From NCBI GenBank assembly GCA_012840015.1, contig DUMF01000017.1:16376-80375 (forward strand): DNA of 64,000 nt, in the 5' to 3' direction. The first letter of the stretch is position 1. The number at the start of each line of letters is the position of its first letter. Under the pieces are notes generated by a model. It was not told where the DNA came from. It was given only the letters and a program-made list of their open reading frames with translations, and ran no database searches. The DNA comes from Bacillota bacterium (GTDB taxonomy: Bacteria > Bacillota > Sulfobacillia > DUMF01). Both the position numbers and the translations under genes were made by a program. This document shows, one piece after another, positions 4,126-34,294 of the stretch.

Positions 4126-4709
4126 CTATCCCTTGTATGTCTGAGGGACGAGACTTTTGGTGGCGCGATAATAAGCGTACGTGAGTGGCTCACCGTCGTG
4201 GAGTATTCCTGCGCCTAGCACGTCTGCCACAAACAAACTATGTGTACCGGCATCTACCGTCATTTCTGGCCTTACCCTGCATTCGATAAAGGCGATCCCT
4301 GGGAGTACAACTGGGCATCCGGTGTGCTCCGCGAGGAGATAACTGAGCCCGGCGAACTTATCGATTTCCCGACCCGAGCGATATCCGAACCTTCCCACGA
4401 GGGGATGGCCGTCGGTGCCCAGCACAGTAGTAGCGAAAACGCCGCTTTTGGTTATGTACTCGTATGTTAGGTTCTTTTTATTAATACCTATTGCGATCCT
4501 ACGAGGGTTTTCAGTTATCTGAAAGAGCGTGTTGCAGCACTGCCCGTTTAACCTTTCGCCCAGGCGCGATGTGACTATATAAAGCCCGTAGGTTATCTTG
4601 AAAAGGGCCAAACCCACCGGGTCAGAGATGCCACGTAGAGTGATAGGCACGACCGGGGCTGGTGCTTCTGAGATTGCCGTTCGCTTACGCGTCTGGTCGT
4701 GCTCCATAA
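4126..4709 (-). CDS. Flavin reductase-like (FMN-binding split-barrel) protein
   Basis: Internal ATG at 4709 is preceded by GGAGGA. The flavin-reductase-like domain (…GISDPVGLALFKITYGLYIVTS…) follows. It sits directly downstream of the ABC-2 permease. Confidence 0.55.
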
Positions 4710-29058: not shown

Positions 29059-29133
29059 GCTGGCGTAGCTCAACGGCAGAGCAGCTGATTTGTAATCAGC
29101 AGGTTGTCGGTTCGAGCCCGACCGCCAGCTCCA
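29059..29133 (+). tRNA. tRNA-Thr (anticodon UGU)
   Basis: GCTGGCGTAGCTCAACGGCAGAGCAGCTGATTTGTAATCAGCAGGTTGTCGGTTCGAGCCCGACCGCCAGCTCCA. The 7-bp acceptor stem and 5-bp anticodon stem flank the loop TTTGTAA. The T-arm is GGTTCGAGCCC. Confidence 0.85.
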
Positions 29134-29205: not shown

Positions 29206-30378
29206 CTAATGTACTCGCCCCGAACCGTTTTCGTCGGGGAAGAGAATATGGTCTAGTGAGGTCGCAGCCTGCTCTTGTAGGCCCGGCAGGACATGGGAAT
29301 AAGTGTCGAGAGTTAAGTTTATCTGGGAGTGCCCGAGGCGTTCGGACACAACCTTTGGGTTTACGCCCGCCTGCAGCAGCAAGCTCGCGTGGGTATGGCG
29401 GAGGTCGTAAAAGCGGATATCCGGGAGACCTGCAGCTTTGAGCACAGCCTTGAATTTGCGGGTAAGATTCCTGGCGCTTATCGGCGTGCCATTTGCGGTG
29501 CAGAACACGAATCCATTGTCTTCCCGATAAAAGGGGCGTTCCCGGTTCTGCTGCGCCTTGTGCTTGAGCAAGACCTCGGCTATTCCCTGTGAGATTGCAA
29601 CCTGCCGGCGGCTTTTCGATGTCTTCGTACCCTGTACCAGCAGTTGGCCTTTCCGCTTCTGTAAAGTTTGACGCACCGATATGGTTAAGTTGTCGAAATT
29701 GACATCCTCCCACCTTAATCCCAACAATTCGGACTGCCTCATACCGGTGGCGAGAGCCAAGAGGAAGAGCGCATATAGCCTATCTCCTTCCAGGGCACGC
29801 AAGAGCAGCACTGCTTGTTCGGAAGTCAAGCTTCTCATTTCTTTCTGCTCCATACTTGGAGGATCGGCAGCTTCGGCCGCGTTGTACGGGACTATCCTCC
29901 ACTTGACGGCCGTCCTGAGGGCCTTATGCAGAATGCGATGGTGGTACAGTACCGATCTCGCGGAAAGCCCTCCCGGCTTGCCGTCCTTTCTCCCGGACTG
30001 AAGGGCCCGGAGGTAATACTCTTGGAGGTGGGTCGGGGAGAGCCTGGCTATTGGGATTCTCCCCAAGGCAGGGATAAGATGTTGTTCGATGATTTGCGTG
30101 TAACTCTCCAGAGTCCGAGGGCCCACCTTGGGCTTAGCGTACTTTTCCAGCCATATTCTCAGATACTCTGCCATGGTAAGCTTGCCGGGGTCGGCCGGCA
30201 GCCCAGCTTCAAGCTCCGTGATCTTCTTGGCCAGGAATCGTTCAGCCTCGCGCTTGTTACCGTGGACGGTATACCATTTATACTTCTGCTTCCCCGTCAA
30301 CTCATCGCGGCCGAGGTAGATCACGACGGAATATGACTTTTCGCTACGTTTACGGATGTGGCCTTTCAACGGTGTCAC
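29206..30378 (-). CDS. int: Tyrosine-type site-specific integrase (phage integrase family)
   Basis: An N-terminal SAM-like/arm-binding region and a C-terminal catalytic domain with conserved R…HxxR…Y residues (…LRHTHASLLLQAGVNPKVVSERLGHSQINLTLDTYSHV…). Confidence 0.85.
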   Translation of the reverse strand: MTPLKGHIRKRSEKSYSVVIYLGRDELTGKQKYKWYTVHGNKREAERFLAKKITELEAGLPADPGKLTMAEYLRIWLEKYAKPKVGPRTLESYTQIIEQHLIPALGRIPIARLSPTHLQEYYLRALQSGRKDGKPGGLSARSVLYHHRILHKALRTAVKWRIVPYNAAEAADPPSMEQKEMRSLTSEQAVLLLRALEGDRLYALFLLALATGMRQSELLGLRWEDVNFDNLTISVRQTLQKRKGQLLVQGTKTSKSRRQVAISQGIAEVLLKHKAQQNRERPFYREDNGFVFCTANGTPISARNLTRKFKAVLKAAGLPDIRFYDLRHTHASLLLQAGVNPKVVSERLGHSQINLTLDTYSHVLPGLQEQAATSLDHILFPDENGSGRVH

Positions 30379-30499: not shown

Positions 30500-30949
30500 T
30501 TATTTCAGCACCAATTGTGCATTCAACGGAGTTGGCTCCATGATGCGAACGCCTTCAATCTGATCGAATCGAAGCAAATCGTCCTTGTCATATGTATAAA
30601 AGCACTGCGCCCCATAAACTATTGCTGTTGCGAGATGGATGGCGTCTGGTGGCTTAAGTTTGTACTCTCTAGCCAGCTTTCGAGCCTTAATTGCGATTCT
30701 ACGATCCAATACTACAACCCGAAGCCAGGAATGCTCAAAAAATGCATCGATTCTCTGCAATTGTTCATCGATCATGCTGTTGCCGCGGCATGCTTCGGCC
30801 AAGGTCAATACTGAAGAGAGAGCTCTGATTTGGCCCGCTTCTGCTTCTCTTAGAACGGCTTGGCAATCTTCTACTCGCCCATTTTCACCTTTGAAATAGG
30901 CTAGGAAGACACTAGTGTCAAGGTAAATCAGCGGTGGTTCACCACTCAT
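30500..30949 (-). CDS. PIN-domain ribonuclease (VapC-like toxin)
   Basis: Conserved acidic PIN residues are present (IYLDTSVF…; TLAEA…; PPDAIHLATA…; YTYDKD). Length 149 aa. Confidence 0.65.
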   Translation of the reverse strand: MSGEPPLIYLDTSVFLAYFKGENGRVEDCQAVLREAEAGQIRALSSVLTLAEACRGNSMIDEQLQRIDAFFEHSWLRVVVLDRRIAIKARKLAREYKLKPPDAIHLATAIVYGAQCFYTYDKDDLLRFDQIEGVRIMEPTPLNAQLVLK

Positions 30950-31730
30950 CTTTCAGCCTCCTAAGGTAATCCTCAAGTGGCAAACCATTTGTGATGTTTG
31001 GGGCGACTCCAATCATTTCTTCGATGGAAGGCAATTTCGAGTCATCAGAAAGCACGTCGATGCTTTCTGCAACTACCTGAGCAAGTCGGCCAGTTGCAGC
31101 GTACCTGATCAGGCCGCTCACGCTGACCCTTTTCTTCAGACCGGCCTTTACCTTTTCAAGTAATTCAGGTTTGAAATAGCAGCAAATACAATGGCCTGTC
31201 AACTCATCATAAACGTTGAATTGGTTCTTTTCATGGACGGTAACCATCTCAAGCCTACCTTCTACCGAACCAAGATCTTCCCAGAAAGCGTGAAGGATCT
31301 GGTCTGCTGTCTTTGCAGTTTGCAGTGTTAGTTGTACGCGTCGACGAGGGCCGCTGACTACCATACGTGTTTTAGTTTTGTAAGCTAATTCTGCCAATGC
31401 CTTGGCGGCCCTGATGGTATCCTCAGGGAGACAAGCATTCAAATTACCATTTTCGAGCGCCGCTAGTCCGTCCTCTGCGATGTAGCAAATACGTTCTCCT
31501 ACGACTGTTTCTGCAATTGGACTGACTGCCAGGTGGACACTACCCTTCCCCAAGTCCTTTACTAGCCAGTCTAGCTTTTGTTGCGGTACCAGATCGCGGA
31601 GTGTATTTAGTAGATGCACAAATCGCCTGAAGGCGTGCGCCAATGTGGTCACCCGAACAGCTTGCTCTTCAGAATCGAGGTGTAAGACAAGACATGCCTC
31701 GGGCACCAGCATCTCCCTCCCTTGCGCCAC
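30939..31730 (-). CDS. Hypothetical 263-aa protein translationally coupled to the downstream PIN gene
   Basis: Its 3' end overlaps the PIN start by 11 nt. I recognise no known antitoxin fold. The C-terminus is …SIEEMIGVAPNITNGLPLEDYLRRLKDEW. Confidence 0.4.
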   Translation of the reverse strand: MAQGREMLVPEACLVLHLDSEEQAVRVTTLAHAFRRFVHLLNTLRDLVPQQKLDWLVKDLGKGSVHLAVSPIAETVVGERICYIAEDGLAALENGNLNACLPEDTIRAAKALAELAYKTKTRMVVSGPRRRVQLTLQTAKTADQILHAFWEDLGSVEGRLEMVTVHEKNQFNVYDELTGHCICCYFKPELLEKVKAGLKKRVSVSGLIRYAATGRLAQVVAESIDVLSDDSKLPSIEEMIGVAPNITNGLPLEDYLRRLKDEW

Positions 31731-31857: not shown

Positions 31858-32166
31858 TTATTCCCTTCGCCTGCACATAAGTTGTCGTATGGTCCAAGCG
31901 TGATCCTCCGCTGCCCATTCTACTGCAGAACTTGGATAATCACCCAGGCAGTGATACGCTTCATGAAAGTAGCTGATTTCCTGCTGCTCCTCGGACCGGC
32001 CGGGATTCACGACTACATGGCAGTGCCCTTTGCTGCAGATGTAGGTAATGCCGTAGACCGTACCCAGATCTGCAGCACGGACATACATGTTGTAAGCGGT
32101 TTCGATCTCTTCTGGACATTCGGGCTTGTCCAGCATCATAAACGCAAATGCTTCTGAAGTATCCAT
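31858..32166 (-). CDS. ImmA/IrrE-like zinc metallopeptidase (HExxH; short form)
   Basis: HEAYH zinc-binding motif. Located immediately downstream of the XRE repressor, the same arrangement as ImmR/ImmA. Confidence 0.45.
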   Translation of the reverse strand: MDTSEAFAFMMLDKPECPEEIETAYNMYVRAADLGTVYGITYICSKGHCHVVVNPGRSEEQQEISYFHEAYHCLGDYPSSAVEWAAEDHAWTIRQLMCRRRE

Positions 32167-32197: not shown

Positions 32198-32636
32198 TCA
32201 TTTCTCGTCGGGCTGGTATGAGCCTTCTTCTTCCTCGATTGCCTTGATAACGCGGATGACTTTCCTGAGAGAAACAGGGTCCAGGTCCTTGATCGTGCGG
32301 AAAGCTAACCTCAACTCACGCTTTGATAAGAAAGCCTCCCAGAACTCCTTGAGCTCGGGATCGCCTTCGACGGCATCTTCGATTTGCTTGCGCAATGGCC
32401 GCGGGTCATCGGTGCGGCCGAGGAGGTAATCCACCGAGACGTCGAAGAAATCAGCAATTTTGGTTGCAATCTCGAAATCCGGCTCGCGCTGCCCCAGCTC
32501 GTACATAGCTAGAGTGCTGGGGGCTATTACAAGTAGTTTCGCGAGTTCCCTTTGGCTGAATCCCTTTGCTTCACGTAATTCTTTTAACCGGCTCGCAAAT
32601 TTCACGAAGCTCACCCGCTCCGATCGCTCTTTCATA
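32198..32636 (-). CDS. XRE-family HTH repressor (cI-like)
   Basis: HTH_XRE motif SQRELAKLLVIAPSTLAMYELGQREPD. The likely start is the internal ATG (MKERSERV…) near 32636. It is divergent from the cro-like gene. Confidence 0.7.
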
Positions 32637-32770
32637 GTATCACCAATTGTGAGCACAGCGACCCATGCACACAAAAAGTGAAAATATCTCGTTTCGTATG
32701 TTGACATTGCTCGCACATCGTGAGTATAATCTGAAGCGAAAGGATGCTCACAGATTGCGAGTGACCACAG
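32637..32770. promoter_or_regulatory. Divergent promoter/operator region of the lysogeny switch
   Basis: TTGACA-18 nt-TATAAT oriented toward cro. Inverted half-sites TGTGAGCA (about 32647) and TGCTCACA (about 32744) lie on either side of the promoter. Confidence 0.4.
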
Positions 32771-33010
32771 ATGCTTGAACGCAAGACACTAAGTGATCTT
32801 CGAAACCAACTAGGCTTATCACAGCGCAAACTAGCCAAGCTGCTTAACCTGAAGCCGAGTACCATAGCAATGTACGAGCTGGGCTTGAGGACACCCCCAC
32901 TTAATACCGCGAAGCGCATTGCGGCCTTCTTTGGTGTAAATGTGGAGGCTATTTATTTTGGCTACGAAGCTCGCATTCTGCGAGCAAAAGCTACTGGCAC
33001 AGACGGCTGA
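32771..33010 (+). CDS. Cro-like XRE-family HTH regulator
   Basis: 79 aa with HTH SQRKLAKLLNLKPSTIAMYELGLRTP. Confidence 0.7.
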   Translation: MLERKTLSDLRNQLGLSQRKLAKLLNLKPSTIAMYELGLRTPPLNTAKRIAAFFGVNVEAIYFGYEARILRAKATGTDG

Positions 33011-33531: not shown

Positions 33532-33777
33532 ATGGACGATCATCCCCTTCAAGTTCAAGCGCTTCCGGCGGTCCTGCGGGCCCCGGACGTTGCTAAGATC
33601 CTTGGATGTTCCAGGTCAACCGTGTACGAGTTATGCCACCAGCAGAAGATACCGCACATACGGCTTACGGCTCATCGGTTGATTATTCCCCGGGACGCCT
33701 TGATTCTCTGGCTTCAAACCTGCGGCGAGTTCAGGATAACAGAAAAACCCGAGACCTCAAATGAGAAAGTGGGGTGA
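33532..33777 (+). CDS. Excisionase/AlpA-like HTH DNA-binding protein
   Basis: …PDVAKILGCSRSTVYELCHQQKIPHIRL…RLIIPRDAL resembles HTH_17/excisionase-family proteins. Confidence 0.45.
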   Translation: MDDHPLQVQALPAVLRAPDVAKILGCSRSTVYELCHQQKIPHIRLTAHRLIIPRDALILWLQTCGEFRITEKPETSNEKVG

Positions 33778-34294
33778 AAACATGCAAGTCGGTGCGGTAA
33801 TCAGGCAAAAGCGCGAGGAAGCAAACCTGACGCAGGCGACGCTGGCTAGGCGAATTGGGGTCAGCGAAAGCACGCTGAGGATGTACGAGTTGGGGCTCAA
33901 GCAGGTTCCGCACGATGTGGCGAACATGGCAGCGGTAGCGCTCAGGGCCCCGGAGGTATGCTTTGCGAAGTGTTCTGAATGCCCCACAAATTGGCTTTCG
34001 GTGTGTCTCCTCGATACGGATCAGCACCCTGCTGAAGAAGTTCTCCAAGTTCTTCAGGAGGCTCAAGAAGCGATCGAGGCAGTGCGTGCCATGGCAGTTA
34101 AGCCGCACGGCAAAGTTCAGCGCGAACTCGTCGAGCGCGCCTGCGACCAGGTGCTGGACCTAGTGCCTTTGGCGGCAGCCGCGGTGGCTAGTTGGTGCAG
34201 AGCCTACGGGATCTCTATGAGAGAAGTCCACGATCGGCACATGAAGAAGCTTGTTAGTCGCGGATATGTAAAGAACGAGGCTGAAGTGGCGTGA
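33761..34294 (+). CDS. XRE-family HTH protein with C-terminal extension
   Basis: HTH NLTQATLARRIGVSESTLRMYELG. Length 177 aa. Confidence 0.55.
   Translation: MRKWGENMQVGAVIRQKREEANLTQATLARRIGVSESTLRMYELGLKQVPHDVANMAAVALRAPEVCFAKCSECPTNWLSVCLLDTDQHPAEEVLQVLQEAQEAIEAVRAMAVKPHGKVQRELVERACDQVLDLVPLAAAAVASWCRAYGISMREVHDRHMKKLVSRGYVKNEAEVA

Follow-up and report, generated by a model that had tools for sequence, protein, structure and literature searches.

The window considered here is a stretch of 64,000 nucleotides (nt) from a Bacillota bacterium (GenBank assembly GCA_012840015.1, contig DUMF01000017.1, positions 16,376 to 80,375), and the element in question is a pair of overlapping genes on its minus strand, which encode a PIN-domain protein and a larger partner protein. 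The PIN gene occupies positions 30500-30949 and encodes 149 amino acids (aa) from an ATG at 30949-30947. The partner gene lies directly upstream, at 30939-31712, and ends in a TGA stop codon at 30941-30939. The pair is probably a PIN module of the toxin-antitoxin or abortive-infection type, whose partner belongs to a new family that is both large and widespread. The two open reading frames (ORFs) are not the product of chance, since both have strong homologues and the pair is kept in dozens of unrelated contigs. At its full length the partner ORF spans 30939-31730 on the minus strand and has 263 aa from a GTG codon, which is the form described in an earlier reading made from the sequence of the window only (the sequence-only reading). 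Such a frame exists, but the true start is probably the ATG at 31712, giving a protein of 257 aa, because this product is identical to the National Center for Biotechnology Information (NCBI) hypothetical protein P0001 from a Firmicutes metagenome-assembled genome and the codon has a GGAGGG just 5' of it. A GTG at 31706 is a possible alternative start.

The junction of the two genes (30939-30962, minus strand) brings the PIN start codon at 30949 inside the 3' end of the partner gene, whose TGA is at 30939-30941. The overlap is exactly 11 nt by both the ORF map and the sequence, as the sequence-only reading had stated. An AGGAGG Shine-Dalgarno sequence (30957-30962) is located within the partner coding sequence, 7 nt 5' of the PIN ATG, and this internal site together with the overlap suggests that translation of the PIN protein is coupled to that of the partner. 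The same 11-nt overlap is found in several of the related loci, which are designated here by L numbers (L001, L016, L022 and L025-L027). A partner gene that comes first and overlaps the gene behind it is the usual layout of type II toxin-antitoxin loci.

The PIN gene product matches Pfam PF01850 (3.2e-19), and its nearest solved structure by sequence is the VapC ribonuclease 7by2 (E 1.5e-3). Residues D11, E52, D102 and D121 fall on conserved acidic columns (alignment A3), and all four acidic residues are retained in the aligned partner-linked PIN proteins, with the exception of that of L001. Judged by this motif, the PIN protein appears to be a catalytically competent VapC-like ribonuclease. 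The earlier description of it as VapC-like with conserved acidic residues is borne out by the PF01850 match and the intact tetrad, and the concern voiced with it, that the protein might be catalytically dead, fails at the sequence level, where all four acidic residues are present. A C-terminal extension of ~25 aa, which the canonical VapC does not have, is common to the partner-linked PIN proteins. PADLOC-DB v2 returned no match for the PIN protein.

The partner family and its predicted structure

A profile search that was exhaustive over 1.84 billion representatives, with counts given as representatives at 50% identity, places the partner in a family with 3,259 representatives at E<=1e-3; 1,952 of them reach <=1e-10 and 299 reach <=1e-30. 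The members are nearly all 240-265 aa long and match end to end, and the window partner itself scores E 5e-75 against the family profile. A word-indexed homologue search gave 4 relatives of the partner; the wider family surfaced only by the exhaustive profile search. On these end-to-end matches, the partner is a full-length member of a new family of ~250 aa. Because it is a full-length member of so large a family, the scenario of a pseudogenized fusion of fragments, which the sequence-only reading had named as a danger to its own interpretation, is excluded.

In Pfam, NCBIfam, PHROGs, PADLOC and the sequences of the Protein Data Bank (PDB), the window partner obtained only sub-threshold matches (E 0.0066 or weaker), none of them credible. 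When 43 members of the family were scanned singly against Pfam, PADLOC and PHROGs, there was again no credible match, and the same was true when a profile of the 43 members was compared with PDB sequences; the tRNA_anti-codon OB-fold model was weakly matched by 2 of the 43 (7e-4), a faint hint of binding to ssDNA, RNA or tRNA. In PADLOC-DB v2 the best match of the partner has an E of 0.025, and only a chance-level match to BrxC is found across the 43 members. Neither the window partner nor any of the 43 members has a Pfam or NCBIfam match to the AbrB, RHH, Phd, MerR or helix-turn-helix (HTH) antitoxin families. The statement in the sequence-only reading that the partner shows no AbrB, RHH, Phd or MerR fold is upheld by the lack of family matches and by the model described below, in which an α/β domain is joined to an OB-fold. 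The option of a fusion antitoxin, offered at the same time, has to be given up, as the partner contains no known antitoxin domain. The source annotations of the family members all read 'hypothetical protein'. The JGI name of P0221, 'D-Tyr-tRNA deacylase', appears to be spurious; on inspection of its sequence, P0221 resembles the other members of the family apart from an extension at its N-terminus. Short relatives consisting of the OB-fold only are also found (P0086, 121 aa; P0220, 169 aa).

The AlphaFold model of the partner, built from the 43-sequence alignment, has a predicted local distance difference test score (pLDDT) of 92.3 and a predicted template modeling score (pTM) of 0.79; an earlier run with 4 sequences gave a pLDDT of 45 and was not used. 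The model and the conservation analysis delimit an N-terminal α/β domain of residues 8-141 (31290-31691, minus strand). It is followed by a predicted OB-fold domain of residues 143-220 (31053-31286, minus strand), with the order β1-β3, helix, β4-β5, and by a C-terminal region of residues 221-257 (30942-31052, minus strand), which is defined by the alignments and has helices at residues 230-256 in the model. Residues 143-220 are predicted to form a five-stranded closed β-barrel with a helix between β3 and β4, which is the arrangement that defines an OB-fold. This domain is structurally like those of SSB, RPA, PriB, the N-terminal domain of MCM and the anticodon-binding domain of class IIb aminoacyl-tRNA synthetases. 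It differs from these OB-fold families in its sequence, with 9-23% identity and no sequence-level match save the two weak matches to the tRNA_anti-codon model, and in being embedded in a new two-domain protein.

Conservation within the family peaks in the strands of the OB-fold (GSVEGxLE, C178 and RVxVxG200) and in the C-terminal LPxxxDxxG, a near-invariant motif represented by L227, P228 and G235. About half of the members, the window partner included, have a helical tail after this motif (PNITNGLPLEDYLRRLKDEW; PNITNGL..EDYLRRLKDEW). The family motifs of the N-terminal domain are W49, GS58, GL82-83 and L106. In the window partner and its closest relative, P92 and F95 of the RPxxF loop are replaced by N and L, and the loop is also shorter. 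The N-terminal domain obtained no structural match because the whole-model searches were dominated by the OB-fold. Among viral proteins, the near-full-length structural neighbors in BFVD are A0A8S5QA00, which contains DUF6575, Q6NE06 of Leptospira phage LE1 and A0A8S5T657, one of the three being a Myoviridae protein (Foldseek E 6e-11 to 4e-8, TM-scores 0.38-0.49). DUF6575 has been reported in one of the PD defense systems (Vassallo et al. 2022). The modeled resemblance of the partner to DUF6575 is a lead only, and PADLOC gave no match.

Pairing, co-divergence and decay

Scripted scoring of all loci gave 34 distinct partner-PIN pairs, in which the two genes are on the same strand and the junctions range from -19 to +34 nt. 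A metagenome scan contributed 31 further loci; L002-L007 represent one locus in different samples and are uninformative on mobility. Apart from L021, wherever 250 nt or more of downstream sequence is available, a PIN ORF directly follows the partner ORF, and the loci in which no PIN was detected had less than 150 nt of downstream sequence. A reverse search started from PIN homologues finds the same partner family (L017, E 1e-39; L018, E 2e-37), and a PIN homologue of 135 aa is paired instead with a canonical MazE/AbrB antitoxin. The pairwise distances of the partner proteins are correlated with those of the PIN proteins (r = 0.82), a value that was reached in none of 2000 permutations. The partner and the PIN protein co-diverge.

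Two loci carry damaged copies of the module. In L021, an IMG/VR viral contig (5920-6824), a protein of 149 aa consists of the OB-fold and the C-terminal tail only. Its sequence is almost the same as that of the C-terminal half of the L044 partner. In the ORF that follows, the resemblance to PIN proteins is confined to the first ~12 residues (MTLYRRPYLESS), beyond which the sequence diverges. Either the module of L021 has decayed, or the phage carries an orphan 'antitoxin' fragment. L001 is the closest relative of the window pair, and its partner, 71% identical to that of the window, is intact. Its PIN protein (4142-4600) diverges after about residue 115, where the fourth catalytic aspartate is gone, a change that is likely due to a frameshift or to recombination near the contig end. 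Taken together, L021 and L001 suggest that the toxin is lost first, a pattern of decay typical of toxin-antitoxin modules.

Carriage by insertion sequences and phages

Insertion sequences of the IS1595 family with passenger genes are listed in ISfinder as 'plus' subgroups. The IS1595-family element of L044 (3175-6329; 3,139 base pairs, bp) encloses a transposase gene together with the partner and PIN genes. Its terminal inverted repeats (GGCAATAAATACCTTGACTAACCCA) are 25 nt long and match at 23/25 positions; they score 19, whereas shuffled sequences reached at most 10. The element is flanked by a direct repeat of 8 bp (CTACTTTC), a perfect target duplication, and an AIPR (abortive-infection) gene adjoins it. 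This transposable element is intact, and the pair is its cargo. It agrees with the known passenger-bearing elements in that all three genes lie inside the inverted repeats and the duplication. More generally, the gene just 5' of the partner gene encodes an IS1595-type Zn-ribbon/DDE transposase in 10 of the 34 distinct pairs and in one locus without downstream room, and it often overlaps the partner gene by 4 nt. The transposase-linked loci include L010 (5084-7247), L011 (5108-7241), L002 (32-3003), L025, L033, L035-L037, L039 and L040. The transposase-like protein of L002 has 576 aa, with an unexplained N-terminal extension of ~270 aa. No terminal repeats were found around the transposase-partner-PIN units of L010, L011, L002, L040 and L027 within the ranges scanned, and such repeat-less loci may be degraded insertion sequences or a domesticated three-gene operon. 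In the window there is no transposase gene near the pair, so this copy, unlike that of L044, does not qualify as part of an IS1595 element and is located in a prophage instead.

The prophage setting of the window pair is real. A tRNA-Thr gene (29059-29133, plus strand; detected by ARAGORN and Rfam) stands immediately to the left of a tyrosine integrase gene (29206-30378, minus strand; Pfam Phage_integrase 4e-31, PHROG 1 6e-84). To the right of the pair are an ORF of 102 aa with an HEAYH motif (31858-32166, minus strand), an XRE/cI-type repressor gene (32198-32716, minus strand) and a cro-like HTH gene (32771-33010, plus strand), which is divergent from the repressor gene. Terminase, portal, protease and tape-measure genes follow further right of the cro-like gene. 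The sequence-only reading had placed the pair between the integrase and the ImmA/cI genes; the integrase and the repressor are confirmed, but the name 'ImmA' derives only from the HEAYH motif and from weak similarity to an M78 peptidase in a pairwise comparison (E 6e-4). The HEAYH ORF has no Pfam or PHROG match. It is about half as long as typical ImmA/M78 peptidases and may be a truncated or minimal anti-repressor protease. The integrase gene, the pair, the HEAYH ORF and the repressor gene are all on the minus strand, and from this shared orientation it is plausible that the pair is transcribed together with the immunity genes. At 0.47-0.49, the GC (guanine plus cytosine) content of the pair is below that of the integrase and the phage body (0.54-0.58), as would suit a cassette that was acquired.

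The perfect TTGACA-18-TATAAT promoter of the cro-like gene (32701-32730, plus strand) sits within the 5' end of the longest repressor ORF. The start of the repressor is therefore probably internal to this ORF, near MKERSER... rather than at the GTG at 32716. Another HTH-type regulator-like ORF of 177 aa (33761-34294, plus strand) is located downstream of the cro-like gene in the early region and was recognized by inspection of its translation only. Rfam gave nothing besides the tRNA-Thr over the region, and operator-like repeats were not found there. Consensus scans 5' of the partner gene found neither a sigma-70-like site nor a palindrome, although such scans cannot exclude a promoter. A search with the 3' end of the tRNA-Thr gene (at least 14 nt exact) found no attR copy in positions 29134-64000 of the window, and therefore the right end of the prophage is either beyond the window or degenerate. 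A comparable position is occupied in Pseudomonas phage vB_PaeS_AV001, in which the pair adjoins an S24 repressor and has the same 11-nt overlap.

Within 5 kilobases of the pair, other loci have type I restriction genes (L010, L026), an Mrr-methylase gene, the gene of a type ISP enzyme (L013), phage genes (L011), and genes for an AIPR protein (L044) and a serine recombinase (L015). The neighborhoods of L018, L022 and L038 are neutral. A plasmid search gave no match, and a search for related loci returned one genome locus and one viral locus.

Proposed function and alternative explanations

To our knowledge, PIN/VapC is the most abundant prokaryotic toxin family, and its known partners are small DNA-binding antitoxins. 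The pair described here represents a distinct PIN clade that is locked to a large and structurally different partner family with at least 3,259 clusters at 50% identity. What is new is the size of this uncharacterized family, its predicted OB-fold, its transport as insertion-sequence cargo and the existence of a cultured phage, vB_PaeS_AV001, as a handle on the module. The pair shares with VapBC a VapC-like PIN protein with a D-E-D-D tetrad, a partner gene that lies upstream of the toxin gene and overlaps it, carriage on mobile elements, and decayed copies that lose the toxin first. It differs from VapBC in the size of the partner, ~250 aa compared with 70-100 aa for VapB, and in the predicted folds of the partner, an α/β domain and an OB-fold with no AbrB, RHH, Phd, MerR or HTH domain, so that the pair falls outside the VapBC definition on the antitoxin side. 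Further differences from VapBC are the extra C-terminal extension of the PIN protein and the lack of an operator or promoter detectable by consensus scans, which cannot exclude a promoter. The pair matches none of the defense systems catalogued in PADLOC v2, and literature searches found neither an OB-fold partner of a PIN toxin nor a precedent for an OB-fold antitoxin. In the gonococcal ε/ζ system the OB-fold is reported to lie in the toxin. The partners of toxin-antitoxin systems are already known to be promiscuous (NetFlax, PMC10440598).

The pair is best regarded as a selfish or defensive toxin module because of its partner-first overlapping order, strict pairing, co-divergence, intact nuclease motif, mobile carriage and toxin-first decay. 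We lean, by somewhat more than an even chance, to the reading that the pair is one mobile unit in which the partner binds and silences the PIN ribonuclease. The partner would bind the PIN protein and hold it inactive in the manner of an antitoxin, and the OB-fold would serve as a nucleic-acid- or protein-binding sensor or regulatory domain that replaces the usual DNA-binding domain of an antitoxin. Loss, titration or triggering of the partner, as might follow superinfection by a phage or loss of the element, would release the PIN protein. It would then cleave cellular RNA, likely tRNA or rRNA as VapC does, and this cleavage would arrest the cell. The physical interaction, the neutralization, the RNA target, the trigger and the defense phenotype are all steps that we infer. 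In the window, the cassette would be accessory DNA of the 'moron' type, inserted between the genes for integrase and immunity, where it may serve phage exclusion or abortive infection, prophage retention, or both. If the partner is an antitoxin, an OB-fold class joins the antitoxin repertoire, which would imply regulation without operator binding. The proposal of the sequence-only reading, hedged between a novel-type antitoxin and a sensor partner of an abortive-infection or exclusion module, fits the strict pairing, the co-divergence and the carriage on phages, insertion sequences and defense islands.

Several observations weigh against the proposal that the partner neutralizes the PIN protein. 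The interaction of the two proteins and the toxicity of the PIN protein are themselves inferred. The partner has no recognizable operator-binding domain, the consensus scans found no promoter-like site or palindrome upstream of its gene, and in many loci its translation is coupled to that of a transposase gene that precedes it; for these reasons autoregulation of the classical kind is unlikely. Neutralization alone would call for a much smaller protein than a 250-aa partner with two folded domains, and the window partner is without P92 and F95, which are near-invariant in the N-terminal domain of the family. The association with defense islands is anecdotal, as it rests on about ten contexts. 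In addition, DS-5 of E. coli, in which a PIN protein is joined to an unrelated partner, is not a toxin-antitoxin system and its PIN protein alone is non-toxic, so that gene order by itself is no proof of antitoxin function (PMC13092281).

DS-5 also supplies the model for reading the pair as a sensor-effector defense system, in which the partner would act not as an antitoxin but as a required activator or specificity factor. Its OB-fold would sense single-stranded DNA, RNA or an SSB-like protein of a phage and switch on or direct the PIN nuclease, and the PIN protein alone would be inert. This system was identified by DefensePredictor, is validated as anti-phage, and needs both genes and the PIN catalytic residues (PMC13092281). 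Like the pair, DS-5 is a two-gene operon with a non-canonical partner first and a PIN effector second, and it sets the precedent of a PIN protein that works with a required accessory protein outside the toxin-antitoxin scheme (PMC13092281). HEC-03, composed of an ABC ATPase and a PIN protein, offers another precedent. The large partner with its two predicted folded domains, the OB-fold as its most conserved part, the restriction and abortive-infection genes among the neighbors and the failure of the consensus scans to find autoregulatory features all agree with a sensor. However, the DS-5 PIN protein has 376 aa, and its partner is a DUF5830/AcrIF4-like protein of 166 aa with a Zn-ribbon-like motif. 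Homology to DS-5 was rejected on the basis of hhalign comparisons (probability 0.1% for the partner profile against DS-5A, 0.2% for the PIN profile against DS-5B) and of the lack of a DUF5830 match in the 43 members. DS-5 is non-homologous to either protein and so provides an analogy only. The orphan partner fragment and the degraded PIN genes, which look like toxin-first decay, and the partner-first overlapping order typical of toxin-antitoxin pairs speak against a sensor-effector system, which we regard as the main rival but rather unlikely. A broader form of the same idea can be put forward tentatively as a possibility, namely that the partner is an OB-fold sensor of phage nucleic acid or of an SSB-like protein and gates the PIN ribonuclease in an unrecognized, widespread anti-phage system that travels as prophage or IS1595 cargo, and that phages might counter with fragments of the L021 type. 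A sensor role for the partner would make the pair a new and compact defense system. Whether antitoxin or sensor, the pair is a clear example of one cassette that moves among prophages, insertion sequences and defense islands.

The remaining explanations are less likely. The pair could be a pure addiction cassette that retains the IS1595 element or the prophage by post-segregational killing. Its presence inside a genuine IS1595-family element whose 8-bp target duplication is fresh, the transposase gene upstream in about a third of the loci and the position of the pair among the lysogeny genes of a prophage would all be expected from addiction. This explanation nevertheless seems improbable, as it leaves the conserved OB-fold and the extra domain unexplained and the frequent restriction and abortive-infection neighbors point to defense islands, although the two roles are not mutually exclusive. 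A two-subunit nucleic-acid-processing enzyme for the element's own cycle, and not a conflict system, is very hard to credit; here a substrate brought in by the OB subunit would be cut by the PIN subunit during RNA or flap processing in transposition or phage replication. In Dis3/Rrp44 and other RNA-processing enzymes, PIN-like nucleases do work together with OB or S1 domains, and the pair is tightly coupled to the transposase gene in many loci. On the other hand, it also occurs without transposase or phage genes (L013, L017, L018), its distribution is patchy, its place in prophages is the lysogeny region and not the replication region, and its PIN protein is VapC-like rather than FEN- or Mut7-like. 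The least probable arrangement, to which we give hardly any credence, is a three-gene system similar to Rosmer, with the upstream HExxH (ImmA/M78-like) protein as the true regulator or antitoxin of the PIN protein. An HEAYH ORF is indeed directly upstream in the window, a 206-aa M78 peptidase has this position in L001, and associations between an ImmA-type node and PIN proteins have been reported (NetFlax, PMC10440598). Against it, an M78/HExxH gene is upstream in only 2 of about 34 loci (the window, by motif only, and L001), the 250-aa partner is always present, and the HEAYH ORF of the window is the one that matched neither Pfam nor PHROGs. Moreover, ImmA beside an XRE repressor is the normal anti-repressor arrangement of Firmicutes prophages.

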